DNA of 59,299 nt from Candidatus Woesebacteria bacterium GW2011_GWB1_33_38 (GCA_000990005.1 LBPF01000004.1:1-59299), one strand, 5' to 3'; positions 3 through 41,855 are shown, numbered from the stretch's first letter. Translations and numbers: made by a program. Notes: generated from the sequence alone by a model not told the origin.

Positions 3-950
3 AATCAATTTGGAGCTAAAGGTCGTGCTGAAACTGGTCAAAATTATACACAAATACTAAATGCATACTATAACGCAGATGTAACGAGCGGGTATAATAC
101 AGGGATAACGATTAACGTTTCAGGTAAAAATGAGTTTGGACAATCATTCAACGACAATTGGAATATTGAAGACTACGTTAAACATATTTATGAAATGCCG
201 ACCGATTTTCCAACAGAAGCTTTAAAAGCTCAGGCCATAGCAGCTAGGTCTTACGCATTAAGTTATACCAACAATGGAACAAAATCAATTTGCCCAAGCC
301 AAAGTTGTCAAGTTGTCAAACGCGAAATAAACAATGGCACATGGCAAACTGTTGTTGAGGCAACAAAGGGAAAGGTTTTGACAAATGGTGGAAACCCCAT
401 TACTGCATGGTTTTCCTCCACACACGGTGGATATGCATATACATCAGGAGATATTGGGTGGAGCAATAAACCATGGACAAAAAGATTGGTGGATGCAAAT
501 GGTGGGATTGGAAACTTTTCAGATTTGTTTAACAATGCTTATGATAAATCTTCCCCAACCTTTTATTGTGATTGGGGTAGCAGAACCCAATACAACAAAA
601 CCGCTTGGTTAAAACCAGAAGAAGTTGCAGATATTGCAAATGTTATGCTCCTTGCTAAGGCAGACGGATCAACCCAAAGACATCTTTCTCAGCCAGATAA
701 ACCAAATCCAGACGGTGTTGATACATGGGATGAAAACAAAGTCAAAAACGAACTTTTGAGTCGAGGTATAACACCTTTTAATTCTGTTTCAAATGTTTCA
801 ATCGGCGCTGATTTTGGAAGTGGAAGGACAACAACGGTTACAATTGATGGCAGATCGTTTGATGGCCAAGATTTTAAAAGTTATTTTAACCTTCGCGCTC
901 CTTCTAATATTCAAATTGTAGGGCCACTATTTAATATTGAAAAAAGATAA
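3..950 (+). CDS. spoIID: SpoIID/LytB-family protein (5' partial; frame open from window edge)
   Basis: Frame 3 has no stop from nt 3. Contains NQFGAKGRAETGQNYTQILNAYY and ALKAQAIAARSYAL, both typical SpoIID motifs. Confidence 0.7.
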   Translation, partial: NQFGAKGRAETGQNYTQILNAYYNADVTSGYNTGITINVSGKNEFGQSFNDNWNIEDYVKHIYEMPTDFPTEALKAQAIAARSYALSYTNNGTKSICPSQSCQVVKREINNGTWQTVVEATKGKVLTNGGNPITAWFSSTHGGYAYTSGDIGWSNKPWTKRLVDANGGIGNFSDLFNNAYDKSSPTFYCDWGSRTQYNKTAWLKPEEVADIANVMLLAKADGSTQRHLSQPDKPNPDGVDTWDENKVKNELLSRGITPFNSVSNVSIGADFGSGRTTTVTIDGRSFDGQDFKSYFNLRAPSNIQIVGPLFNIEKR

Positions 951-974
951 TCCTGATCTGTTATAATTAACTAT

Positions 975-1652
975 ATGCCAGATATATTCAAGGCGAAAGT
1001 GATTGAAGCCAAACCAATTGAATTTAAACCAAAGAACAAAGATGAAGACCACCATTTAAGAAAAGTTTTGTATAAAGATCTTCCTTCGTCTGGGTTTAAT
1101 CCATTAGGTTCTATCATGTTTTGTCCGGAAAATTTGAAATTTGAAACAATGGATTCTGAAGAGAAAGTTGTTCTTTTCCTACGAAAACATTGGATAACTA
1201 ATATTCCTTGGATTTTAATGGCTATATTTATGTTTTTAATTCCCCCTTTTGTTCAAGATCTGTCACTATTTGATTCAATTCCAGACAATTTTATGTTTAT
1301 TTTTGTACTTATCTGGTGTTTAATTTCTACAGCTTATTTTTTAGAGAGTTTCCTGACTTGGTTTTTTAATGTCTATATAGTAACCGATGAAAGAATCGTT
1401 GATATTGATTTTTTTAATTTAATTTATAAAGAAGTAAGTGATGCTAATATAGACAAAATTCAAGACGTCACTTACAAAATGGGTGGAGTTATTAGAACAC
1501 TTTTCAATTATGGTGATGTTATGGTTCAGACAGCTTCAGAAGTTCCCAATTTTGAATTTTTGGCAGTTCCTAAACCTGACAAAGTTTCCAAGGTTTTACA
1601 AGATTTAAGAATTGAAGAACAACAAGAAGCAATTGAAGGGAGGGTAAGATGA
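975..1652 (+). CDS. membrane protein with bacterial PH (bPH/YdbT-like) domain
   Basis: Two TM helices followed by a DERIVDIDF...KIQDV PH-like segment. Paralog of 15120..15758. Confidence 0.5.
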   Translation: MPDIFKAKVIEAKPIEFKPKNKDEDHHLRKVLYKDLPSSGFNPLGSIMFCPENLKFETMDSEEKVVLFLRKHWITNIPWILMAIFMFLIPPFVQDLSLFDSIPDNFMFIFVLIWCLISTAYFLESFLTWFFNVYIVTDERIVDIDFFNLIYKEVSDANIDKIQDVTYKMGGVIRTLFNYGDVMVQTASEVPNFEFLAVPKPDKVSKVLQDLRIEEQQEAIEGRVR

Positions 1653-1861
1653 TTTTATCCTTAACTATTTGGTCAATCCTTAAAGTATTTATTTTGATAT
1701 TTTTAGCAATTTACATTGTTTTTGCTTTTGTGGTTATGCGCCAAGTTCAGTTAATGACAGCTACTTTAGAGGTCGGTTTTGAGGGACAACTTAAGTTTTT
1801 AGCCTTTTTACATTTTTTATTTGCTATTGCAGTTTTGGTCTTTGGTATACTTACCCTGTGA
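1649..1861 (+). CDS. small membrane protein
   Basis: 70 aa with two hydrophobic helices. ATGA overlap with the upstream gene. Confidence 0.45.
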   Translation: MILSLTIWSILKVFILIFLAIYIVFAFVVMRQVQLMTATLEVGFEGQLKFLAFLHFLFAIAVLVFGILTL

Positions 1862-3222
1862 ACAGTAAATTAATTGGAAACGCAAAAATTAGTGGTGGTT
1901 TTATTTATATTGTTGCCGAAAAAGGGACAACAGCTGTACTTCATCGGGGTTTAAATAAAGTTTTGCTTATTAAAGCTACTGACCAAAAACAAACAGCTAA
2001 AGGTAAAGTATTACAGGGAGATGTTTATATTTTGGAAAATGGAGAAGAAAAATTAATCACTAAAATTGATGATCAAAAAATTTTTCAAGAAAATAATATT
2101 TTTATAAACCCTGACCCTATATATGACGCTACTTCCGAAAAAAGAAAGACTACATTTACTGTTGGTATTTTAATTTTGATTCTTCTAATTGTTAGTGTTG
2201 TTTTTGGAGTTAATCAAAAAAACAAAAAAGAATTTAGAGATGAATCAGAACGGCTTCTTTCAGAAGCTTTGAAAAGTTATGAAAAATCTATTGATGAATC
2301 TAGCCTTGATATAACAATCCCAAGACAACTTTTTGTTTCTGCAAGGGAAATTGCCTTTAAATTAAGAGATGATGGCTATAAAGATGAGAAGTTAACCAAT
2401 TTAATTGATAACATATCTTCCAAAGAATCTCTGGTTTTAGGTGAGCAACAAGTTGATGTAAAGGAATTTTTGGATTTATCACTTCAAACAAACGGCTTTA
2501 ATGGGGAGAGCATTACTTCAACAGGTGAAGAGATGTTTATTTTGGATAGGGAAATTAAAAGTGTTATACAAGTTGACCTTTCAACTAAAAAGGCCAAAAT
2601 AGTTGCAGGAAAAGATAAATTAGACGGTGTAAAACAGATTGCTTCATATGAAGACAAATTGTTTTCACTAACAAATGATGGTATTTATCAAATAAACAGT
2701 GAGAAAACTAAGGTGAAAGATATGGATTGGGGAGAATCGTTAATATATCTTTACTCGGCCAATATTTACTTAATTGATAAAACTGCAAATCAAGTATTTA
2801 GGTTTTCAGGTTCACCTCAAGGAAAGAATCTAACCTTTTCTGATAAACAAGACTGGTTGGCTCCAGGAATTGAGATGGATTTATCAAAAGTTAAAGATGT
2901 TGTAATTGACGGTTCGATTTGGCTGCTATCAAGTTCAGGAAAAGTCACTAAACTAACAAATGGTAATCCAATGGCAATTTTGATGAAAGGAATCATTGAT
3001 GAGATTAATAATCCAACTGCAATTTATACAAATGAAGAATTAAAATATGTTTATATTCTTGAACGCGAAAAGGGCAGGGTTGTAATTCTGGAAAAAAACG
3101 GTAACTTCAAGATGCAATATACATCAGATGCAATTAAGGAAGCAAAAGATTTAGTGGTTAGTGAAAAAGAAAATAAAGTAATCTTGCTAATAAGCTCAAA
3201 ATTAATGTATTTTGAGCCCTAA
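1858..3222 (+). CDS. membrane-anchored hypothetical protein
   Basis: Long ORF with a GTG start overlapping the upstream TGA. One internal TM segment (TFTVGILILILLIVSVVFGV). Confidence 0.5.
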   Translation: MNSKLIGNAKISGGFIYIVAEKGTTAVLHRGLNKVLLIKATDQKQTAKGKVLQGDVYILENGEEKLITKIDDQKIFQENNIFINPDPIYDATSEKRKTTFTVGILILILLIVSVVFGVNQKNKKEFRDESERLLSEALKSYEKSIDESSLDITIPRQLFVSAREIAFKLRDDGYKDEKLTNLIDNISSKESLVLGEQQVDVKEFLDLSLQTNGFNGESITSTGEEMFILDREIKSVIQVDLSTKKAKIVAGKDKLDGVKQIASYEDKLFSLTNDGIYQINSEKTKVKDMDWGESLIYLYSANIYLIDKTANQVFRFSGSPQGKNLTFSDKQDWLAPGIEMDLSKVKDVVIDGSIWLLSSSGKVTKLTNGNPMAILMKGIIDEINNPTAIYTNEELKYVYILEREKGRVVILEKNGNFKMQYTSDAIKEAKDLVVSEKENKVILLISSKLMYFEP

Positions 3223-3229
3223 ACAAACT

Positions 3230-3620
3230 TGGTGGAGATGGAGGGAATCGAACCCTCATCCGAAAAACTTATAAACAAAACCTTTACAAGCGTATTTAGT
3301 TTTTATAATTTCCTTTAAAAATTATCCAACTAACAGGAATTTTAAAGTGAGATTTATTTGTCTTTGTTACAGATCTTTAAATCATTAAAATCTGTAAAGC
3401 ATCTCGAATTGGTTTACACCCAGTCGGTCCGATCGAGAATCAGACTTCAGGACGCCGTTAAGCATCAATCGTTAAATATGCAAAATGCATATCACGATAT
3501 TGATTAACAGAAGCAAAATTTTGTTTTGCTTTTAGTTTTTGATATCTTTTGACAAGTGTTTATCAAACTTGGCTTGCAGTTTTGTAAAAGAGCTTCCCGT
3601 CGAAACCGGTCTTTTGCTTT
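3230..3620 (-). ncRNA. ssrA: tmRNA (SsrA); 3' end certain, 5' end approximate and atypical
   Basis: The reverse complement ends GAGGGTTCGATTCCCTCCATCTCCACCA (T-arm, acceptor, encoded CCA). GGTTTCGACGGG, the hallmark of the 5' tRNA-like domain, lies at 3596-3609. The gene is immediately downstream of smpB. Confidence 0.65.
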
Positions 3621-4000
3621 ATAGAATCTTTTTTCTCAAACTGTCTTTTGGCCTTGCCAAGAGTCAATTCAAGCTTAATCCTACGTTTGCGATTATACAT
3701 CATTGTGGGCACGATTTGCAAGTTTTTTTGTTTTGTTTTTGTAACCAGAGCTAAGATTTCACTTCTATGAAGTAGAAGTTTTCTCATTCTAGTTGGTTCG
3801 TATTTTAAAATTCCCTTAGCTGGAATGTTAGCGTTAATTAAAAATACTTCACCGTTTAAAACTCTGACATGAGATTGTGATAAATCTATCCGATTGTCAC
3901 GGAATGATTTAGCCTCAACACCTTTTAAGACAATACCAGCCTCAACCTTTTCAGGAGTTAGTTCATATTCAAATCTTGCTCTTTTATTAAAGATGCGCAT
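3563..4000 (-). CDS. smpB: SsrA-binding protein SmpB
   Basis: MRIFNKRARFEYEL..GIVLKGVEAKS..HRSEI is the SmpB signature. Start chosen at the internal ATG 3998-4000. The C-terminal tail overlaps the tmRNA 5' region. Confidence 0.85.
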   Translation of the reverse strand: MRIFNKRARFEYELTPEKVEAGIVLKGVEAKSFRDNRIDLSQSHVRVLNGEVFLINANIPAKGILKYEPTRMRKLLLHRSEILALVTKTKQKNLQIVPTMMYNRKRRIKLELTLGKAKRQFEKKDSIKQKTGFDGKLFYKTASQV

Positions 4001-4013
4001 ATAGTAATTATAT

Positions 4014-4640
4014 ATGATTCTTGATTTACTGTTCCCCAAATACTGTTTAGAATGCAAAAAGTTAGGTAAATATATATGTGATGGCTGTTATTGTAAGGTC
4101 AGACCTTGCAATATTATAGATAATAATTATTCAATTTTTAAGTACGAGGGAGTGATTAGAAAGGCAATAATTTCTTTAAAATATAAGTTTGCATTCGATT
4201 TAGTTGACGAGTTAGTTAGTTGCGTGTTACGAGTTTTAAAAATAAATTCTAAATTCTTAATTTTTACGGCATCGCCAGTTATTAATTCTAAATTAATTTT
4301 AGTTCCAATTCCACTTCATAAACATCGGGAAAACTGGAGAGGATTTAATCAAGCAGAAATAATTGGAGAAAAGTTAGCCAAGAAAATGAATTGGAAATAT
4401 ATTCCTGATTTATTAATTCGTACAAAAGAATCAAAACCTCAAGTTCAATTAAAAGGTCTTGACCGCAGAAAAAATTTATCAGGAGTTTTTGTTGTTAATA
4501 CTAATCACTTTATATCTAATAACTGTTCACTTGTTCTTTTTGATGATGTTTACACCACAGGTTCAACCATAAATGAGGCCAAGAAAGTACTACAAGAATC
4601 TGGTTTTAAAAATATCCAAAGTCTAACTATTGCGAGATAA
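4014..4640 (+). CDS. comF: ComF-family phosphoribosyltransferase
   Basis: N-terminal CxxC..CxxC cluster and PRTase motif VLFDDVYTTGSTINEA. Confidence 0.8.
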   Translation: MILDLLFPKYCLECKKLGKYICDGCYCKVRPCNIIDNNYSIFKYEGVIRKAIISLKYKFAFDLVDELVSCVLRVLKINSKFLIFTASPVINSKLILVPIPLHKHRENWRGFNQAEIIGEKLAKKMNWKYIPDLLIRTKESKPQVQLKGLDRRKNLSGVFVVNTNHFISNNCSLVLFDDVYTTGSTINEAKKVLQESGFKNIQSLTIAR

Positions 4641-4672
4641 TTGAAACAAAGTCTTTAGTGTACAAAACACAA

Positions 4673-5230
4673 TCACTGTACTATATTTATCGTATTTTCA
4701 GTCGCCTGAGTTCTTGTTTGTTTGGTCTGGTTAGCAAACCAATTATAGTAAGCATCTATGAAATCCAAGCAGAATATATCTATTTGTAATTGCAAGACTT
4801 TATAATTTTTGGTCTCCTGTAGATTAAAATGTCTAAAGTTATTTTTCTTTGGAGGCACAAATTCAAAGTTATCTAACTTTATACGTGCCTGTTGATGGCT
4901 AATACTAGTTGTTGCCTGGTGATAAAGACTACATCTTAGGGCGTAACAATCATTTCCAGAAAATTCTAGATTTGACATAGATATTAATTTCTGTCTCGTT
5001 TCTGTGTTCATTGACTTCAGCATATTTATCGGAGCACCAGTTTTTCTCCGATATTTTTTTCCAAGATATCGTTCGAATCATCTTATATAAAGCTTTCTGG
5101 ATGTTTTTCTATTTTTATCTTCCAAACTAGAACATATATCTGGAATAGCTAGACAAAGAAACATAGCTGCAAACCAGTTTTTATTTTTTAGACAGCTTTT
5201 AATTGATTGTATTATTAAATCTATATTCAT
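4673..5230 (-). pseudogene. hypothetical protein interrupted by an in-frame TGA (5078-5080)
   Basis: ORFs 5078..5230 (start MNIDLII) and 4673..5023 are in the same frame. They are separated only by one TGA and 18 sense codons. Confidence 0.4.
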
Positions 5231-5246
5231 ATAAAATAATTTGATT

Positions 5247-5338
5247 TGGCGGTGAGGGTGGGATTCGAACCCACGACAGCCAAAAATGACTGTATTAGTT
5301 TTCAAGACTAACCTGATCGACCACTCCAGCACCTCACC
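5247..5338 (-). tRNA. tRNA-Ser(UGA), CCA encoded
   Basis: Reverse complement reads GGTGAGG..anticodon loop CTTGAAA..long variable arm..GGGTTCGAATCCCAC CCTCACC G CCA. Confidence 0.85.
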
Positions 5339-5363
5339 GTTTTTATATAACTCTAGTAATTTG

Positions 5364-5449
5364 CGGAGGATACAGGGGTCGAACCTGTCCGACGCAATTA
5401 AGCGTCAAAGTTTAGCAAACTTTTCCCTGAACCGTTCGGGATATCCTCC
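5364..5449 (-). tRNA. tRNA-Ser(GCU)
   Basis: Reverse complement reads GGAGGAT..anticodon loop TTGCTAA..long variable arm..ACAGGTTCGACCCCTGT ATCCTCC G. Confidence 0.8.
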
Positions 5450-6438
5450 TTGTATCTCAATAATCTAAAGTTGCTTGATCCAACAATATTAAAGTAATCT
5501 ATTACTGAGGCTTTATTATACAGCCAAATGCGTTCACCTGCCACACTTGGATGCAAATTTAATTCATCTAGAGTTTTTGTTACAAAATTTAGTAAAGGTT
5601 TTGATCTATTAGCAAAACATGGGTTTAAATATGTATAACTTTTAGACTTGTATTTATGAGTACATCTTGATATGCAACCGTCTGTATCCATTAGCCCTCT
5701 TAGGCATGCGATTTTGTATTCAATTGAGCCCATTATCCACATAGGCACACTTACTTGTTGCTTTACCTTATCGCCCTTTTTAAGGCCAATTTTTAATAAA
5801 TAATTTATTAGATTAATTCCGCTATATCTTAAATTTGTAGCTTTACAATCTTTTCTTGGAGCTATTTTTGGTTTTTGTCCAAAAAGAGTTTTACCTAAAT
5901 TGGCAACATACTTTATATATTTCTTGTCAGCAACTGTATTTAGTGTCACTGTTGCTTGTTCTTTTGTAATTCCACCATCTCCTAACATGATTCCAACAAA
6001 TTCTGCCAGCCTTATTGATTTTTTTGGATACAAATAAGGCTTGGAACACCATGCGGCTAGACCTCTCTTTCTAAGAATTTGTAAAGCATTATGGCCACCT
6101 TTCCTTCTTCCTTCCGGAGTACTGAAATTTCCATAAATTTTATATCTTGCTTTTGCACCGATTCTACAAGTTTCGCTTCTTAAATTTTGCCAATTTATTT
6201 TTAATTGCTCTAAATTATTAGGTAAAATAATGTCATGTTTGTTGCATAGAATTTTTACAGCATTCTCTGTTATGTTATATTTTTCTCTTTTCCAGTCTCG
6301 AATCGTTCTAGGTGAAACATTTACCAGTCTTGAAAATTTTATGGAATCTAAATTAGATTTTTGAAGTGCACTTTCTAAAAATTTTCTTTGTTCTCCCTTC
6401 GGAAATTTAATTCTACTATCGCTATATTTAGATGGCAT
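5398..6438 (-). CDS. LAGLIDADG-type homing-endonuclease-like protein with N-terminal HTH
   Basis: Two LAGLIDADG-like motifs (LAEFVGIMLGDGGI, LRGLMDTDGCI). The last 52 nt run antisense into tRNA-Ser(GCU). Confidence 0.65.
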   Translation of the reverse strand: MPSKYSDSRIKFPKGEQRKFLESALQKSNLDSIKFSRLVNVSPRTIRDWKREKYNITENAVKILCNKHDIILPNNLEQLKINWQNLRSETCRIGAKARYKIYGNFSTPEGRRKGGHNALQILRKRGLAAWCSKPYLYPKKSIRLAEFVGIMLGDGGITKEQATVTLNTVADKKYIKYVANLGKTLFGQKPKIAPRKDCKATNLRYSGINLINYLLKIGLKKGDKVKQQVSVPMWIMGSIEYKIACLRGLMDTDGCISRCTHKYKSKSYTYLNPCFANRSKPLLNFVTKTLDELNLHPSVAGERIWLYNKASVIDYFNIVGSSNFRLLRYKEDIPNGSGKSLLNFDA

Positions 6439-7131: not shown

Positions 7132-7213
7132 GGAGGATTGGTAGAACGGTAATACGCGGGTTTCGAAAACCCGTGGGAGTAATCCCAAGTAGGTTCGACT
7201 CCTACATCCTCCG
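7132..7213 (+). tRNA. tRNA-Ser(CGA)
   Basis: GGAGGAT acceptor, anticodon loop TTCGAAA, long variable arm, GTAGGTTCGACTCCTAC T-arm. Confidence 0.8.
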
Positions 7214-7240
7214 CTTTTCTGGTACAATACACGTAAAGTT

Positions 7241-7718: not shown

Positions 7719-7734
7719 ATGGAGGAGTCGGATA
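7719..7734 (+). repeat. 16-nt direct repeat: duplicated 5' end of tRNA-Ser(GGA)
   Basis: ATGGAGGAGTCGGATA occurs at 7719-7734 and again at 7782-7797, where it is the start of the intact tRNA. Confidence 0.9.
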
Positions 7735-7783
7735 AGTAAACTTGCAACCCAGTTGTAAGCATAGCTTGTCCTTACCCTCACAT

Positions 7784-7867
7784 GGAGGAGTCGGATAGTG
7801 GTTCATTCCACAGACTTGGAAAGTCTGCGGCTTAACAGCCTCGCGAGTTCGAATCTCGCCTCCTCCG
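7784..7867 (+). tRNA. tRNA-Ser(GGA)
   Basis: GGAGGAG acceptor, anticodon loop TTGGAAA, long variable arm, GCGAGTTCGAATCTCGC T-arm, CTCCTCC G. Confidence 0.85.
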
Positions 7868-9361
7868 CTTTGCAAATAATGAGCGTGTCGCAAAATATGG
7901 CGAGTTTTGCGCACGCTCGGAACAGGCCGTATTGTAGCCCAGTTTGTAATCTGTTTGGAGCGAATTACCTTCTAAAATGAAGTTCGAGCCGACACTTTTT
8001 GCAAAAGAGCGAAGCTCTTCTGCAACTACATTTTTTGCCGCGATTTTTCTAGCCTGAAAGGCTCGCAACATGAAGTTTTCGAAAGGTTCGAGCCAAAGTC
8101 CACCCTTTTCTTTTAGAACAGCGATTTTCTCTGCGATTTTTTGTTTTTCCTCAAAAATCTCATTCTTCTTTAGTTTATAAACTTCGGGGTCAATATCTCC
8201 TGAAATATAACCGTCGGTTAATCTACTAACTTTAAGGTCTTGTAATTTTATTTCGTTTTCAAAATTGTGAGATTTTTGAGAGACAAGTTTTGTCTCTAGC
8301 TTTTTATCTTCCTCAAACCACTTTTTCCAATCACTTTGCCAAGAAGAAGGCAAGGCAACTGCCGAAATTATCCTTTTAATCTCACTTTTGAGATTATCTT
8401 CAGAAATATACTTTTGACTGCACTTACCTAACTTTTTAGTACAACGATAGTAGGTATAGTCAGCACACCTATCAGTACCTTTGTAATATTTATGATGAAT
8501 TTCGGCAGTTATTGCAGCTCCACATTCCGCGCATCTGGCCAGTCCTGTAAAGGCAAACCTGTGTCCATCAGTTCTAGGTTTTTCTATCTTTTTGATTTCA
8601 GATTGAACAGAGTCAAACAATTCTTTGGGTATAAAACACTTATGCGTTCCTTTATACCACTCACCTTTATAGAAAAACTGACCCATATAGAATTTGTTAG
8701 TTAAAGTTCTTCTAATCCTTGTTAAGTCTAAAGGTTTGCCTTTACCTCCAAAAACTTTATTCGAAGCAAGGTATCTTGATATTTTCACAAAAGACTTTTC
8801 ATTTAAGAATAGGGTAAAACAGTTACTCACCAATTTAGATAGCTTTTTATCAATTACTATGTTGTGAGTAACTGGGTGATTTTTATACCCAAATGGAGCT
8901 TTTAGAGGCCAGATGCCCAAGCGCAATTTTTGCCTAATACCTCTTTTTACATTTTCACTTAAATTATCTACATAATATTTTCCTTGGGAAAAGGCGATTG
9001 AAAGCATGAATTTACCTTGTGGGGTATTATCAAACCAAAAAGTGGGGAATTTTAAATCAACTATTTTCCCAATATCTAAAAAGTAGATAATTTTGCCTCC
9101 GTCAACTGAATTTCTAGCAAGTCTATCGGCGTGCCATGACAAAATTGCGTTTGCCTTGCCTTCTTCAATGCTTTTAAGCATTGAATTAAACTTTTCTCTT
9201 CCAGGTTCTTTGGCAGTTTTTGACTCTGTAATAATTTCAGTTACAAAAAGGTTATTGCTCTTGGCAAATTCCTTTAGTTCTGCAACTTGTGACTCAATAG
9301 ACAAAACTTGCTTTGTGGCTTCGTCAGTTGACTTACGGCAGTAGATTATGTATTTGTCCAT
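7832..9361 (-). CDS. large serine recombinase (resolvase catalytic domain + recombinase domain + zinc ribbon)
   Basis: N-terminus YCRKSTDE..SIESQ carries the catalytic Ser region. CxxC...C cluster (ARCAECGAAITAE...YYRCTKK) and a coiled-coil tail. The ORF runs through IR1 into antisense tRNA-Ser(GGA). Confidence 0.85.
   Translation of the reverse strand: MDKYIIYCRKSTDEATKQVLSIESQVAELKEFAKSNNLFVTEIITESKTAKEPGREKFNSMLKSIEEGKANAILSWHADRLARNSVDGGKIIYFLDIGKIVDLKFPTFWFDNTPQGKFMLSIAFSQGKYYVDNLSENVKRGIRQKLRLGIWPLKAPFGYKNHPVTHNIVIDKKLSKLVSNCFTLFLNEKSFVKISRYLASNKVFGGKGKPLDLTRIRRTLTNKFYMGQFFYKGEWYKGTHKCFIPKELFDSVQSEIKKIEKPRTDGHRFAFTGLARCAECGAAITAEIHHKYYKGTDRCADYTYYRCTKKLGKCSQKYISEDNLKSEIKRIISAVALPSSWQSDWKKWFEEDKKLETKLVSQKSHNFENEIKLQDLKVSRLTDGYISGDIDPEVYKLKKNEIFEEKQKIAEKIAVLKEKGGLWLEPFENFMLRAFQARKIAAKNVVAEELRSFAKSVGSNFILEGNSLQTDYKLGYNTACSERAQNSPYFATRSLFAKRRRRDSNSRGC
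7865..7964. repeat. IR1 left copy (100 bp)
   Basis: Reverse complement of 9434..9533 with a single mismatch (7957). Contains an imperfect dyad, 7881-7895/7905-7918. Confidence 0.9.
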
Positions 9362-9389
9362 ACTTTAGTCCTCTCAAGGCAAGGCCTTG

Positions 9390-9418
9390 AAAAACATTTT
9401 GCATTTTTTTATATTTTC
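9390..9418. repeat. IR3 left copy (29 bp)
   Basis: GAAAAACATTTTGCATTTTTTTATATTTTC is the reverse complement of 9650..9678. Confidence 0.8.
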
Positions 9419-9433
9419 TTTCTTTTTAGTTGT

Positions 9434-9533
9434 TTCGCTCAAAACAGATTACAAACTGGGCTACAATACGGCCTGTTCCGAGCGTGCGCAAAACTCGCCA
9501 TATTTTGCGACACGCTCATTATTTGCAAAGCGG
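9434..9533. repeat. IR1 right copy (100 bp, inverted)
   Basis: Checked base by base against 7865..7964. Confidence 0.9.
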
Positions 9534-9604
9534 GCGTTATACAAAAAAATTCGAACTCAATTTCAAACTCAATGACTCGGACCGCTCCGGCTCGGCCTTT
9601 GGCC
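9530..9604. repeat. IR2 left copy (75 bp)
   Basis: Perfect reverse complement of 10830..10904. Weaker similarity continues about 15 bp further (CCTTCCGCGTA versus CCTCCGCGTA). Confidence 0.9.
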
Positions 9605-9649
9605 GAAGCCTTCCGCGTAAAGTGTCGGCTCGAACATCGCCGTTAGGCG

Positions 9650-9678
9650 AGAAAATATAAAAAAATGCAAAATGTTTT
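9650..9678. repeat. IR3 right copy (29 bp)
   Basis: GAAAATATAAAAAAATGCAAAATGTTTTT, inverted copy of 9390..9418. Confidence 0.8.
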
Positions 9679-9767
9679 TAACGTTCTAGTGTTCTTCTTT
9701 AAATTTATTCCATGTAAATAATTTTTCAATAGCCAAATTTAAACCAAAACTGTCTTTGTAGCTATTA

Positions 9768-10760
9768 TTGTCTTTTTTTGCTAGAATTCACGCAATTATG
9801 ACGATTGAGATAACATTGCCAATAAATACTGATACAGAACCGAAAACTGTTGGCAGATTGGCAAACATATTAAACAATTTCAGGCAAGCAAATAAATTTG
9901 GTGGCACAAGTTATGGATTTTTTTATCTAACAAACGAATGTAACTATGCTTGTGACATGTGTTATATGGATTCAAAGCCAGGACTTAAAAATACTCGATT
10001 AAATCCAGAACTTTCAAAAGGAATAATGCGTGAATTTCAAGGAATTGATGAAATTATAATTTCAGGTGGTGAGATAACGATACTTCCGTATTTTGTTGAA
10101 CAAATACAAACTGCAGCTGAAGTTGCTGGTTTTGTAACTGTCTTTACAAACGGAACAGGTTTTGTTGATAGATCGGTTCTAAGACAAACTGAAGATAATT
10201 TTGAAGCAATCCGAGACGCTGTAAAGTTAGGTATGGAAGAAAAGCTACAAAATATACCATCAAATGTTGAGATCACTATTCCAGCAACTGCATATCATCT
10301 AGTCTCGGATTCGGCTCATAAAGCACATAAATACCATGAAGCGATTGTTACAGCCAGTGCAACTTTGGCTCGAGAATGGTTTGATAGGAATGATAGACCA
10401 AAAATTAGATTTATTGCTAAAAATACCCCAGGACAGCCAAATTCAGGACAAGAAATTATTGATCGCTTTGGAATACAAGGTTTAGGGTCAACAGGTGCCG
10501 CTTTTCCTGGGGGTATTTCCAAAAACGGCAGAGGGGCATCAATTATGGAAGCAAGAAACCCATCTGAGGTTATATCTAAAATCGAGGGAGGTATTCACAT
10601 AAATCATCAAGGCGTTTTTGCCAATGAGCCGTCTTTGCTTCAAAAACTACATTTAAATAATGTTACTCCAGGAGAAATTTGTTCAATAGAATCAAGTACA
10701 TCTGTTGAAGAAGTCGTAAATTCGGTCGCGAGTTTTGTTGAAAGAGTCAGAGAAACTTAA
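9768..10760 (+). CDS. radical SAM domain protein (function unknown); start may be ATG 9798
   Basis: CNYACDMCY (CX3CX2C cluster) followed by the IIISGGEITILP SAM-binding-like motif. Confidence 0.65.
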   Translation: MSFFARIHAIMTIEITLPINTDTEPKTVGRLANILNNFRQANKFGGTSYGFFYLTNECNYACDMCYMDSKPGLKNTRLNPELSKGIMREFQGIDEIIISGGEITILPYFVEQIQTAAEVAGFVTVFTNGTGFVDRSVLRQTEDNFEAIRDAVKLGMEEKLQNIPSNVEITIPATAYHLVSDSAHKAHKYHEAIVTASATLAREWFDRNDRPKIRFIAKNTPGQPNSGQEIIDRFGIQGLGSTGAAFPGGISKNGRGASIMEARNPSEVISKIEGGIHINHQGVFANEPSLLQKLHLNNVTPGEICSIESSTSVEEVVNSVASFVERVRET

Positions 10761-10775
10761 TTTTAAGTGTCTCTG

Positions 10776-10792
10776 GTCGAGCTGTGCTCGAC
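10776..10792 (+). terminator. hairpin downstream of the radical SAM gene
   Basis: GTCGAGC-TGT-GCTCGAC followed by TTTAAAAA. The T-run is weak. Confidence 0.35.
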
Positions 10793-10829
10793 TTTAAAAA
10801 TCGCGTTCAAAAAATGTACGCGGAGGCGA

Positions 10830-10904
10830 GGCCAAAGGCCGAGCCGGAGCGGTCCGAGTCATTGAGTTTGAAATTGAGTTCGAATTTTTTTGTATAACGC
10901 CCGC
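10830..10904. repeat. IR2 right copy (75 bp)
   Basis: Perfect inverted copy of 9530..9604. It ends 1 nt before the ATG of the EEP gene. Confidence 0.9.
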
Positions 10905-11639
10905 ATGAAAATAATATTTTTAAATTGTTGGCAAGGAAAAGTTTGGGATAATCTATCTACTTTTTTGAAGAAACAAGAAAAAGACACAGACACCTTTTGC
11001 TTTGTTGAGGTTTCTCCAAAATTACATTCCAAATTCTCTGATTTATTGATCGGATTTAATGGTGTCTATGAATCAGAAAAACTAAAAGGATTGGATGGAA
11101 TTGAATATGGACAGTCTGTTTTTGTTCGAACAGGATTTGATATTCAAGAAAGTAAGAAAATATCATTATATAAAAATCTATCCAACGACATTGGATTTAT
11201 GCAAGTTGTAGATATTCAAATTAATGACAAGAGTTTGTTGATTGCAAATATTCATGGGATGTCAAATCCTGGGGATAAACTAGATACACTTTTTCGTCTC
11301 AAACAATCAAAAATAATTATTAAACATTTCATTCAAAAATTAAAAAGACCAATAATAATTACCGGCGACTTTAATCTGTTACCTGATACCAAATCTATAA
11401 AACTTTTTGAAAAAGCAGATTACAGGAATTTAATAAAAGAATTTAAAATAAAATCGACAAGAAACAAAATTGCTTGGCAACATTTTAAAAATGACCCAAA
11501 TTTTGTAAAGCAATACTATGCAGATTATTGTTTTGTTTCAAAAGACATAAAAGTAAAAAATTTTACTGTTCCGGACATTGAAATTTCCGACCACCTGCCA
11601 CTAATTTTGGAGTTTGAGATTCACCCCCACACCAATTAA
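10905..11639 (+). CDS. endonuclease/exonuclease/phosphatase (EEP) family protein
   Basis: MKIIFLNCWQG N-terminus and C-terminal ISDHLPLILEF motif. Start taken at ATG 10905. Confidence 0.65.
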   Translation: MKIIFLNCWQGKVWDNLSTFLKKQEKDTDTFCFVEVSPKLHSKFSDLLIGFNGVYESEKLKGLDGIEYGQSVFVRTGFDIQESKKISLYKNLSNDIGFMQVVDIQINDKSLLIANIHGMSNPGDKLDTLFRLKQSKIIIKHFIQKLKRPIIITGDFNLLPDTKSIKLFEKADYRNLIKEFKIKSTRNKIAWQHFKNDPNFVKQYYADYCFVSKDIKVKNFTVPDIEISDHLPLILEFEIHPHTN

Positions 11640-11654
11640 TATGTATTTAGAATT

Positions 11655-11912
11655 ATGTTTTATGTTTATGTACTAAAAAGTTTAAAAGACAAATTATTAT
11701 ATACAGGTTCAACAAATGATTTGAGACGAAGGTTCAAGGAACATAATTCTGGTAAAATATATTCAACAAGGTTGAGAAAACCATTTATTCTTATATACTA
11801 CGAAGCATACAATGATGAGAAGGATGCTAGAATGAGAGAACATAACTTAAAATTAAGAAGTAGAGCTTTTGCTCAGCTGAAAAAACGAATGGAAAGGAGC
11901 CTTAGGGCATAA
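11655..11912 (+). CDS. GIY-YIG nuclease superfamily protein
   Basis: FYVYVLKS...LYTGSTNDLRRRFKEHN is the GIY-YIG signature. Confidence 0.75.
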   Translation: MFYVYVLKSLKDKLLYTGSTNDLRRRFKEHNSGKIYSTRLRKPFILIYYEAYNDEKDARMREHNLKLRSRAFAQLKKRMERSLRA

Positions 11913-11917
11913 TTGGT

Positions 11918-13585
11918 GTGGGGGTAAATCAAATCGAGGAAGTTAAAAGTAAAACTGATATTGTATCCCTACTTGGGCAATATTTAGAACTTAAAAAGGC
12001 AGGTAGAAACTACAAAGCTAATTGTCCATTTCATGGTGAAAAGACCCCCTCTTTTATGGTTTCTCCAGAACTTCAGATGTATAAGTGCTTTGGATGTGGT
12101 AAGTCTGGAGATGTTTTTACTTTTTTAGAAGAACATGAGGGCATGGAATTTAGTGAAGCCTTGAAATATCTGGCTGATAAAGCAGGGGTTAAATTAGTTA
12201 GTTTTAAACCGGAAGTAACTTCAGAACGAGAAAAAATAATTGAAATAAACAAATCAGCTCTTAATTTTTACGAGTATGTTCTAAATTCCCATCCACAAGG
12301 CAAAAGAATTTTGGAATATTTAATTAAAGATAGGGGATTAAACCTTGAAACAATTAAACTTTTTAAAATTGGATATTCGCCTGAAAGTTTCAATGCTTTT
12401 TCAGATTTTCTAACAAAAAAGAAAAAATTTAACTTAAATGATTTGAAACTAACAGGGCTATTGGTAGGACGTGGAATTGATAGATTTAGAGGAAGAGTAA
12501 TTTTTCCACTTTTTGACCACAGAGATAATTGTATCGGTTTTGCAGGTAGAATATTGCCTTGGGTCAAACAGGACATGGCAAAATATATTAACTCTCCCGA
12601 CACTTCCGCATATCACAAATCAAAAGTTCTATATGGACTAAATCTTACTAAATCGTTTATAAGAGATGAAAAGTTTGCAGTCATAGTTGAGGGGGAAATT
12701 GATATGATTTCATCGTACGCTGCCGGCGTAAAAAATGTTATTGCGATTAAAGGTTCGGCCCTAACAGAAGACCAAATAAGATTAATAGGTAGATTTTGCA
12801 AAAAAATAGTTCTTTGTCTAGACTCTGACTTTGCAGGCGACGAAGCCGCTAAACGTGGGGCAATTTTAGCGTTTAATATGGATTTTGAAGTTAGGGTTGC
12901 CCATCTGGTCGGTTTTAAAGATCCTGATGAGATAGCAAGAAGTGATCCAGAAAAATATAAAAAGGCAATTGATGGTGCAATAGGAATCTGGGATTTCTTA
13001 ATAAATAATGCAGTCTTAAAATACGGAATAGAAACAGGCGAGGGTAAGAAAAAAATAAGCTCAGAAATTATTCCCTTAATTGCAACAATTCAGGATGAAA
13101 TTGTTAAATCCCATTACATTGAAGTTCTATCAAGAAAACTTTCTGTTCCTGTTGAGGCGGTATTTAGCCAAATAGAAAAAAATCCATCAAAACAAAAAAC
13201 TGATGAAATAAGTGATGTTCAAAAACAGGAAAAAACAAGAAGACAGCTTTTAGAAGAAAAGTTATTAGTTAATGCAATTTCCCTAAAATCTAAATTAATA
13301 TTTAAAAATGAAATAAAAGATTTAATATCCTCCGAATTTATATTAAAAGTTATTAATAATTTTGAAAAAAATAAAAATTTACCCGAAGAATTAAAAGAAG
13401 GTTATGAAGAAATGGTTTTAACTAATTCTGAGAGTGAAGATACCGATAAAATTATATTGGAGTTAACAAAATTAAAATTAAAACAAGACCTGGAAAATTT
13501 GGGAGAAAAAATAAAACTTGATGAAAACAACAAAGAATTGTTGGCAGAATTTGGCGGAATTAGTAAAAAACTTTCTACCCTTTAA
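11918..13585 (+). CDS. dnaG: DNA primase
   Basis: CHC2 zinc finger CPFHGEKTPSF..CFGCG. Toprim motif VIVEGEIDMIS. GTG start. Confidence 0.9.
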   Translation: MGVNQIEEVKSKTDIVSLLGQYLELKKAGRNYKANCPFHGEKTPSFMVSPELQMYKCFGCGKSGDVFTFLEEHEGMEFSEALKYLADKAGVKLVSFKPEVTSEREKIIEINKSALNFYEYVLNSHPQGKRILEYLIKDRGLNLETIKLFKIGYSPESFNAFSDFLTKKKKFNLNDLKLTGLLVGRGIDRFRGRVIFPLFDHRDNCIGFAGRILPWVKQDMAKYINSPDTSAYHKSKVLYGLNLTKSFIRDEKFAVIVEGEIDMISSYAAGVKNVIAIKGSALTEDQIRLIGRFCKKIVLCLDSDFAGDEAAKRGAILAFNMDFEVRVAHLVGFKDPDEIARSDPEKYKKAIDGAIGIWDFLINNAVLKYGIETGEGKKKISSEIIPLIATIQDEIVKSHYIEVLSRKLSVPVEAVFSQIEKNPSKQKTDEISDVQKQEKTRRQLLEEKLLVNAISLKSKLIFKNEIKDLISSEFILKVINNFEKNKNLPEELKEGYEEMVLTNSESEDTDKIILELTKLKLKQDLENLGEKIKLDENNKELLAEFGGISKKLSTL

Positions 13586-14908: not shown

Positions 14909-14917
14909 AACAGATGT

Positions 14918-14946
14918 ATTCTAAGTTGTGTGTGTGTGGATGTCAA
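14918..14946 (-). promoter_or_regulatory. TTGACA-N17[(CA)n]-TAGAAT promoter, leaderless spacing
   Basis: Minus strand reads TTGACAtccacacacacacaactTAGAATacatctgttATG. Confidence 0.6.
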
Positions 14947-14967
14947 TAGATGTGTATAATTTATGAT

Positions 14968-27329: not shown

Positions 27330-27336
27330 GAGTGGT

Positions 27337-27365
27337 ATTCTAGTCTGTGTGTGTGTGAATGTCAA
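27337..27365 (-). promoter_or_regulatory. TTGACA-N17[(CA)7]-TAGAAT promoter
   Basis: Minus strand reads TTGACAttcacacacacacagacTAGAATaccactcATG. Confidence 0.6.
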
Positions 27366-27428
27366 TACAAAGCTGATATCTAAAATAATGTAACTTGACA
27401 AAGTAATGAGGTATATTATAATAATGTA

Positions 27429-41762: not shown

Positions 41763-41769
41763 GGTCAGC

Positions 41770-41798
41770 AGTATAGCCAGCGTGTGTGTGAATGTCAA
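41770..41798 (-). promoter_or_regulatory. TTGACA-N17[(CA)4]-TATACT promoter
   Basis: Minus strand reads TTGACAttcacacacacgctggcTATACTgctgaccATG. Confidence 0.5.
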
Positions 41799-41855
41799 GA
41801 CTATGGGCGTTTTTTAGGAGTCTGTAAGGGTCGGACCTTTTTACAGATTTCTCTT

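Follow-up and report, generated by a model that had tools for sequence, protein, structure and literature searches.

Positions 7869-10904 of a 59,299-nucleotide (nt) stretch of DNA from Candidatus Woesebacteria bacterium GW2011_GWB1_33_38 (GCA_000990005.1, LBPF01000004.1:1-59299; the window) separate the 3' end of a tRNA-Ser(GGA) gene from the start codon of an EEP-family gene. Taking the explanation as a whole, we consider it probable that they represent an integrated, non-replicative mobile element whose only machinery is a large serine recombinase (LSR). The LSR would recombine an attP site (b'-CCGC-a) with an attB site composed of the T-arm and acceptor end of tRNA-Ser(GGA), the CCGC core, and the downstream DNA. 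The crossover is predicted to fall within the last tRNA bases, so that the tRNA would stay intact. The P arm would mimic the T-loop but with the motif 5 bp more distant from the core, in keeping with the different spacing that LSR zinc-ribbon domains need on attP and on attB. The family to which the element belongs is predicted to target the 3' ends of many tRNA species and to carry a swappable cargo cassette. The features of the region are as follows.

7784-7868 (ARAGORN) or 7784-7867 (Rfam, 52 bits), plus strand: tRNA-Ser(GGA), discriminator G at 7867
7847-7854: T-loop motif GTTCGAAT, starting 18 nt before the core, in the 3' part of tRNA-Ser(GGA), the predicted B arm of attB and attL
7832-9361, minus strand: LSR open reading frame (ORF), 509 aa, assigned by Pfam, alignments, an AlphaFold2 (AF2) model, and Foldseek
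7865-7868, plus strand: predicted attL core CCGC, overlapping the tRNA acceptor end and discriminator
7865-7964, plus strand: outer arm of inverted repeat a (IR-a), predicted P' arm of attL, doubling as coding sequence for the poorly conserved, disordered LSR tail
7881-7918: hairpin of 15 bp in the IR-a outer arm, followed by a U-rich tract on the LSR-sense strand
7979-8007: Y' box, codons of the conserved VGSNF motif of the LSR (GSN invariant)
9390-9419: X box on the LSR side, promoter-like, 29-58 nt upstream of the LSR ATG
9434-9533, plus strand: IR-a inner arm, reverse complement of the P' arm
9530-9533, plus strand: central core GCGG, common to IR-a and IR-b
9530-9604, plus strand: inner arm of inverted repeat b (IR-b), reverse complement of the P arm, continuing more weakly to about 9619
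9610-9638: Y box, inverted partial copy of the VGSNF-coding segment of the LSR gene
9650-9679: X' box on the cargo side, inverted partner of the X box
9798-10760, plus strand: cargo gene, apparently orphan radical-SAM protein, 320 aa, CNYACDMC motif
10742-10829, plus strand: conserved right-end scaffold with a hairpin, common to the sister element (see below) despite different cargo
10830-10904, plus strand: IR-b outer arm, predicted P arm of attR, with the T-loop mimic GTTCGAAT at 10878-10885
10901-10904, plus strand: predicted attR core CCGC
10905-11639, plus strand: EEP-family gene, its first bases forming the predicted B' arm (ATGAAAATAAT)

Junctions and inverted repeats

The layout reads tRNA, CCGC, a, LSR gene (minus strand), a', GCGG, b, radical-SAM gene (plus strand), b', CCGC, and the ATG of the EEP gene. 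The start of the latter at 10905 is supported by its homologues, which span 98% of the 244-aa product. An initial annotation of this DNA had rested on three junction strings, and all three can be read directly: GAATCTCGCCTCCT-CCGC-TTTGCAAATAATGAGCG at the left end, TTTGTATAACGC-CCGC-ATGAAAATAAT at the right end, and an inner one, the reverse complement of 9519-9546, which forms part of the reverse complement of 9434-9604; the latter as a whole reads b'-CCGC-a, that is, a complete inverted attP. The annotation was also correct in that the LSR and radical-SAM genes are the only long ORFs between the junctions, and that the arms are GC-rich (0.46-0.57 versus 0.20-0.35 nearby). The arms of 12-17 nt that it described are real as well, but they are merely the tips of two inverted repeats of 100 and 75 nt that it had missed.

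The first of these repeats, IR-a (7865-7964 and 9434-9533, 99% identity over 100 nt), encloses the recombinase gene. The second, IR-b (9530-9604 and 10830-10904, 100% identity over 75 nt, or 93% over 102 nt with gaps), encloses the radical-SAM gene, and the two have precisely GCGG (9530-9533) in common. A third, perfect inverted repeat of 30 nt, formed by the X boxes (9390-9419 and 9650-9679), brackets the centre. Finally, the Y repeat is an inverted match of 29 nt at 83% identity between 7979-8007 and 9610-9638; equivalents of the Y box (26-28 nt, 89-100% identity) were found in several related loci of the tRNA-Ser group. Such inverted repeats go far beyond what chance would produce. After them, the longest one in the 59-kb window measures 46 nt at 74% identity, and the IR-a, IR-b, and X sequences do not recur elsewhere in the window. 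In the comparison with the sister element L001, the inner arms are shown to evolve in concert with the outer ones: 14 differences are mirrored between the repeat copies and three are not.

Two other readings of the repeats were rejected. A DDE-type transposon with terminal inverted repeats does not fit, since the outer ends are not mutual inverted copies and the duplication is confined to the 4-nt core. Structured RNA in the GC-rich arms is not indicated either, since the only Rfam matches are three tRNAs and the fold of the arms gives a single 15-bp hairpin with weak z-scores (-0.8 to -2.2).

Attachment sites

We predict that b'-core-a is a bona fide attP and that the tRNA, the core, and the downstream DNA form its attB, based on the offset of the T-loop motif and on the likeness of B' and P'. 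The motif GTTCGAAT starts 23 nt before the core in the right arm b' versus 18 nt in the tRNA arm. Relatives, wherever the GTTCGA-type motif can be placed in both the P arm and the tRNA arm, have the P-arm copy 4-5 nt more distant from the core. In serine integrases, the motif bound by the zinc-ribbon domain lies at positions 16-24 of an attP half-site, and in attB it is 5 bp closer to the centre (Rutherford et al. 2013, PMC3783163). As for the right half-sites, B' resembles P' for about 10 nt by the core, both in the window (ATGAAAATAAT versus TTTGCAAATAAT) and in the related loci L001, L008, and L070.

The cores found in the family are 4-9 nt long (CCGC(CA), CCAC, CTGC, CAAC, GCTC, CGACCA, and others) and always correspond to the acceptor end, discriminator, or CCA of the target tRNA. 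Some of them, such as CCAC and CAAC, have no palindromic dinucleotide; therefore, the sites are polar, and the only reactions open to them are excision by attL x attR and silent inversions of the modules. The same cores led us to reject a palindromic crossover dinucleotide, by which separate recombinase and cargo circles would arise. Since each locus holds its own attP, attL, and attR, the attB can be inferred without an empty site. For the window, the predicted empty site is GAATCTCGCCTCCTCCGCATGAAAATAAT, and the predicted arm junction of a flipped recombinase segment is ...TGAGCGAA/ACAACTAAAAAGAAAGAAAATAT.

At the end of the P arm (window 10865-10907), TATAAC stands 6 nt ahead of the EEP ATG; relatives have TAAAT or TACAAT at this place. 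It is a matter of speculation whether the P arm might provide an outward promoter for a leaderless downstream gene.

Evidence for insertion

The gene order around the element is retained in relatives whose EEP proteins are about 55% identical to that of the window: a 173-aa protein, tRNA-Arg/Ser, NUDIX, tRNA-Ser(GGA), EEP, DnaG, and sigma70. In two of them (L094 and L090) tRNA-Ser(GGA) and EEP are separated by a gap of 11-50 nt, and in two others (L091 and L092) by MscL; neither LSR nor radical-SAM genes are present in any of the four. The L094 junction reads ...CCCTCTCCGC-ACATACCTCTG-ATG.

The sister element L001 encodes the closest homologue of the window LSR (92% identity) and has the same double-repeat scaffold and X boxes, with other cargo. 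Its target is not a tRNA but a repeated intergenic sequence of about 100 nt. Three intact copies of this target (...TTTTCAGTGCGG/AGTCAATGGTACGAG...) are present in the L001 contig, and the filled copy is broken inside GCGG. In the region 501-5891 of this contig, the target repeat ends in a TATAAT-like box and lies upstream of several minus-strand genes. The empty orthologous sites, the sister element, and the half-site geometry bear out the original proposal that an LSR element has integrated at the tRNA-Ser(GGA) 3' end and that CCGC is the core common to attL and attR.

Proteins identical to the EEP, radical-SAM, and LSR products of the window were found in 22-31 contigs from many groundwater samples, obtained with several assemblers. 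All contigs fetched with an exact match to any of the three proteins (22-24 contigs; at least 22 independent assemblies) have a 100% identical arrangement, and a strain with 98.75% identity carries the same insertion. The window copy appears to be fixed in its population. The near-attB in tRNA-Ser(CGA), 650 bp away (7193-7214), with the same CCTCCGC end and T-loop spacing, is unrearranged in these assemblies. This tRNA end (7193-7217, CCTCCGC-TTT) is a potential secondary attB, unoccupied in all of them.

The possibility that the structure is an assembly artefact, due to chimeric joins or collapsed population variants, should be considered, since the source is metagenome-derived and inverted repeats near the k-mer length confuse assemblers. 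A chimera, which the initial annotation had named as a way in which it could fail, is ruled out by the identical arrangement in all independent assemblies fetched, which come from different projects and assemblers. Moreover, the same architecture is present in the closed metagenome-assembled genomes CP011214 and CP011210 and in the isolate Schleiferia thermophila DSM 21410. The probability of an artefact is negligible.

The recombinase

The enzyme is a large serine recombinase, in which each testable defining feature is present. It contains the Pfam domains Resolvase (PF00239, E = 5.8e-20), Recombinase (PF07508), and Zn_ribbon_recom (PF13408). In an alignment of 30 sequences R9, S11, and R80 are invariant, and so are the zinc-ribbon cysteines C277, C280, C307, and C314. 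The AF2 model (mean pLDDT 72) has a recombinase domain, a zinc ribbon, and a coiled-coil hairpin at residues 341-419, whose helices 341-386 and 392-419 are modelled with pLDDT 83-91. The top Foldseek match is the SPbeta integrase (9dxd, E = 2e-18), followed by LI (4kis), Bxb1, and phiC31.

Neither conservation nor model confidence extends much beyond residue 480 (about nt 7921), and the C-terminal stretch of roughly 30 residues is disordered. Therefore, arm a is conserved as DNA and not as protein. The ORF itself passes through attL into the antisense strand of the tRNA, and the LSR tails of relatives likewise are the translated antisense of a tRNA T-arm (DSN, IEP, VEP).

Other assignments of the enzyme were rejected. 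The best matches in phage and plasmid collections are only about 25% identical, and just five relatives were found among 2.9 million viral contigs, which argues against a phage or plasmid origin. The scores are also far below the NCBIfam cut-offs for recombinases of the staphylococcal cassette chromosome, CcrA/B/C (CcrB, 100 bits versus 900), and for XisF (96.6 versus 375). The match to IS607-family serine transposases (39.7 bits versus 110) covers the catalytic domain only, whereas the domain order is that of an LSR.

A family of related elements

More than 6000 homologues of the LSR were found, of about 500-560 aa and about 55% identity, overwhelmingly in Patescibacteria; many are on contigs of just 1.65-2.5 kb. 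In species-representative genomes, at least 574 stretches encode an LSR relative. We surveyed 82 loci, comprising the window, L001, L002, and 79 loci from species-representative genomes. Searches of the literature retrieved no account of such an architecture or of serine recombinases in Patescibacteria. The initial remark that no described family of this kind is known stands as far as these searches go, but the element is by no means a one-off.

IR-a is present in 61 of the 82 loci, with a length of 48-136 nt (median 97) and mostly 95-100% identity. Of the 55 loci with sufficient flanking sequence, 46 have a downstream arm that terminates within the 3' end of a convergent tRNA gene. The targets are tRNAs for Ser (18 loci), Gln (nine), Pro and Trp (five each), Val (three), Ala (two), and Ile, Leu, Gly, and Arg (one each). 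An abutting IR-b of 62-209 nt was found in 25 of the 37 loci with at least 3 kb upstream, where it encloses 634-5279 nt of cargo. In nine of the remaining 12 loci, a clear P-type arm is present at the centre; the missing partners probably lie beyond the fetched flank.

In one case (L024, 4295-13364) tandem accretion was observed, as an element had integrated into the attR (P-type arm, core, B') of a relative already in place. The second LSR gene starts at about 12.6 kb, and the result is a cargo-LSR-cargo-LSR chain with alternating core polarity.

Cargo

The radical-SAM protein of the window has a CX3CX2C motif. Viperin-type models rank first for it, yet far under their cut-offs: NCBIfam viperin gives 37 bits versus 180, over residues 42-137, and the PADLOC model of prokaryotic viperin (pVip; 7.5e-11) covers the core only, so that pVip was rejected. 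With other families it matches in the radical-SAM core alone. A search of 5.8 billion clusters yielded just three homologues, each carried by a contig of 2.0-2.6 kb. We fetched two of these contigs; in one of them the gene lies behind an X box of the family type and beside a GC-rich P-like arm. The protein looks like an element-borne orphan.

Comparison of the window with L001 shows that the scaffold (9434-9749 and 10742-10911) is kept around the cargo cassette, the right end being 91.8% identical over 171 nt. As related elements have their arms in common and diverge only in the segment from the central scaffold to the outer b arm, cargo exchange via the att cores was rejected. The cargo of relatives mostly consists of restriction-modification components or defence-type genes, along with Fic proteins, ATPases, a LexA-methylase fusion, and a P-type ATPase, and a small Cro/C1-type helix-turn-helix (HTH) gene is found beside the centre. 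No replication, rolling-circle, or transfer genes were found among 70 ORFs of 25 cargo segments, including all those of 4-5 kb. A Pfam check of the cargo, covering the 25 most frequent families of these ORFs and single scans of the 10 largest ORFs, gave no Rep, primase, or partition domains.

The inner attP site

The inner attP is a resident inverted copy and a hallmark of the family, not the trace of an excised circle. It is near-universal, lies between the LSR gene and the cargo, and is inverted relative to attL and attR. The third junction string, initially taken for what an excised circle would look like, thus does have the attP sequence, but it belongs to a permanent, full-length second attP conserved in the family and does not predict a circle.

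We tentatively suggest that the inner attP could be an LSR-binding control or architectural site, used neither for integration nor for routine inversion; we regard this as possible, with low confidence. As an operator or roadblock between the X-box units, it would autoregulate expression of the LSR and the cargo. Alternatively, it may be a cis accessory site that relieves the coiled-coil lock and licenses attL x attR excision without a recombination directionality factor (RDF). It would be held inverted because a direct copy would be deleted. The length of the arms may be explained by extension and homogenization through gene conversion. The X box, of the type AAAACGCAAAAATTT (AGAAAATATAAAAAAATGCAAAATG in the window), is conserved; in most loci it precedes the LSR start by 10-55 nt, and it has a mirror copy on the side of the cargo.

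The LSR gene has its 3' end toward the tRNA in 46 loci, the opposite arrangement occurs once, and the HTH end of the cargo faces the centre in eight out of eight loci. Given the 46:1 ratio, frequent inversion is unlikely. The sole exception is L064 (5615-7489), where tRNA-Ala(GGC) is on the LSR 5' side and the contig ends exactly at the downstream arm.

These orientations bear on the alternative that the element is a pair of adjacent invertons. In that case, the LSR would be chiefly a DNA invertase for phase switching, by which the LSR gene itself and the cargo are flipped, for instance between an LSR gene convergent with the tRNA (off) and one driven by tRNA read-through (on). It is favoured by the enclosure of each module between perfect inverted repeats with inverted core polarity, by L064 with the LSR 5' end next to the tRNA, by the contigs that break at the upstream arm (20 of 61), and by the arm-a hairpin, which is terminator-like on the LSR-sense strand only, tRNA read-through being antisense to the LSR. 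However, 46 of 47 LSR modules and all eight cargo HTH ends have the same orientation, and the assemblies of this organism agree with one another. The L064 contig ends at an arm, where assemblers cannot fix orientation, and breaks are expected of any repeat near the k-mer length. The empty orthologous sites, as well as the sister element at another target, show insertion. We therefore find the inverton alternative improbable. A Hin/Gin-type inversion system was rejected on account of the 46:1 orientation, the enzyme, which is an LSR, and the arms of 48-317 nt compared with sites of about 26 bp.

In another alternative, the inner attP is a substitute for the RDF acting in cis: LSR dimers bound to it would engage the B-type subunits at attL and attR via their coiled coils and relieve auto-inhibition, so that excision occurs only in cis. 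No candidate RDF is present in the 3-kb element, attL and attR enclose the near-universal inner site, the coiled-coil hairpin by which solved integrases control directionality is present in the LSR, and the polarity of the sites is defined, as judged from the CCAC and CAAC cores. On the other hand, the argument is purely inferential, we know of no precedent, the small HTH gene by the centre in larger relatives could be either a regulator or an RDF, and the assemblies examined contain no excision products. Such a substitute is unlikely. It is also somewhat unlikely, although conceivable, that the inner attP makes the element a self-sufficient single-protein device for integration and excision, either as a cis substitute for the RDF or as a rare self-inversion switch from a tRNA-antisense (off) to a read-through (on) state. 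If that were true, thousands of natural attP/attB pairs at the conserved tRNA T-arm could be read from single genomes.

The doubling of attP might also serve the folding of single-stranded DNA into a duplex attP, as in CTX phage, or the amplification of a circle by inversion, as in the yeast 2-micron plasmid. If the circle were single-stranded, b'-c-a and a'-c'-b would pair in a perfect stem of about 180 bp, and the arms are long, perfect, and co-varying. In the 2-micron plasmid, two inverted repeats part two unique segments, one of which carries the recombinase, and the architecture of the window copies this layout. However, a serine recombinase cuts both strands, and by our reasoning the chromosome ends would be left capped by hairpins if a fold-back stem recombined with a duplex attB; integration of this kind was judged topologically unworkable and rejected. 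The amplifying circle was rejected as well, since the cargo ORFs checked have no Rep, primase, or partition domains. The absence of replication, rolling-circle, and transfer genes from the 70 cargo ORFs of 25 segments and the five relatives in 2.9 million viral contigs also argue against both variants, and this explanation is very unlikely.

To return to the integrated LSR element with its resident inner site, several observations weigh against this explanation, in whole or in part. The right half-sites (P' and B') have only a short similarity, with no clear shifted motif. No RDF candidate is recognizable in the 3-kb element. No conspecific empty site, circular junction, or other orientation was found in the at least 22 independent assemblies; a scan of metagenomes for the arm pattern retrieved only the same insertion and the sister element, and a scan of genomes retrieved nothing. 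Of the checks proposed initially, the search for empty sites succeeded in related species but not within the species, and that for circular junctions found none in the assemblies. The X boxes match the promoter consensus weakly; the scan for promoters gave 19 promoter-like sites versus 14.8 expected. The arms (48-317 nt) are far longer than an LSR site needs, and an operator role alone does not account for this. Finally, inversion and assembly ambiguity are indistinguishable in L064, and rare inversion or integration via the inner site may occur.

Neighbouring features of the window

The first 15 nt of tRNA-Ser(GGA) with one upstream base (ATGGAGGAGTCGGATA) are duplicated 63 nt upstream (7719-7797), and the upstream copy occupies the position where relatives start the tRNA after a promoter-like box TGATATAAT. 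This duplication may have been left behind by some earlier event on the 5' flank of the tRNA. A stand-alone GIY-YIG ORF of 85 aa (11655-11912) is exactly flanked by a 21-nt inverted repeat with 95% identity (11618-11638 and 11910-11930) and has no counterpart at the orthologous EEP-DnaG junction of L090, L091, and L094. It has the look of a second, very small insertion specific to this lineage. In the tRNA-Ser cluster, a 346-aa ORF (5398-6438, minus strand) with a faint match to LAGLIDADG_3, whose 3' end overlaps tRNA-Ser(GCT) (5363-5449), may be a gene of the homing-endonuclease type. Lastly, a 33-nt motif with a (TG)n core, GTATTCTA..GTGTGTGTGTG.ATGTCAATA, occurs in three copies at 14916-14948, 27335-27367, and 41768-41800.

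Comparison with known systems

Little has been described of the mobile elements of Patescibacteria, and in these reduced genomes the family seems to be a major carrier of restriction-modification and other accessory cassettes. Many contig breaks beside genes annotated as "recombinase" are explained by it as well. A large catalogue of candidate LSR/att pairs recognizing tRNA T-arm sequences would follow from its analysis. The questions it raises are why the clade keeps a spare inverted attP, and how 3-kb elements without an RDF leave the chromosome.

The known integrases of Listeria A118/LI, SPbeta (SprA), Bxb1, and phiC31 are similar to the window LSR in domain order, the short core, and the 5-bp offset of the attP motif. 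The identity is about 25%, however, and the element of the window differs from these phages in its size of 3 kb, non-phage nature, tRNA 3' target, and inner inverted attP. Tn4451 and Tn5397 (TnpX and TndX) resemble the element in that they are small and non-phage, with a single LSR, a circular form, and no separate RDF. Their ends are GA dinucleotides and their target choice is looser, whereas the cores of the family are tRNA ends, and to our knowledge no internal inverted joint or long inverted repeats have been reported for them. An LSR transposon of the TnpX/TndX type was rejected, since the core is CCGC, a tRNA end in relatives, and not GA at the ends and joint.

The phiRv1 element of M. 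tuberculosis is an LSR element in the repeated sequence REP13E12, and L001 likewise targets a repeated intergenic sequence; phiRv1 has a separate Xis and no internal attP, and its sequence is unrelated. The res site of Tn3/gamma-delta, located between the divergent tnpA and tnpR genes, is a recombination site that can double as an operator and in this respect is comparable to the inner attP. It is, however, a direct repeat used by a small serine recombinase for cointegrate resolution, whereas the inner attP is an inverted spare site of an LSR. CTX phage has two inverted attP halves, with a single-stranded genome and a tyrosine recombinase, and the 2-micron plasmid (FLP/FRT) combines a tyrosine recombinase with autonomous replication.

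Islander-type tyrosine-integrase islands (PMC4383910) resemble the family in site-specific insertion at tRNA genes, in leaving a functional tRNA, in accessory or defence cargo, and in tandem accretion at an occupied site, as seen in L024. Unlike these islands, the family uses a serine recombinase, and the crossover falls within the last 4-9 nt, so that no displaced tRNA fragment is left. A tyrosine-integrase tRNA island was rejected for the window, since no phage-integrase domain is present and only 4 nt are duplicated.

The element differs from the known LSR systems in four respects: the systematic targeting of tRNA 3' ends via a T-loop mimic; the very small size, with no RDF recognized; an ORF that crosses the att site; and an internal inverted attP that is conserved, with double inverted repeats.

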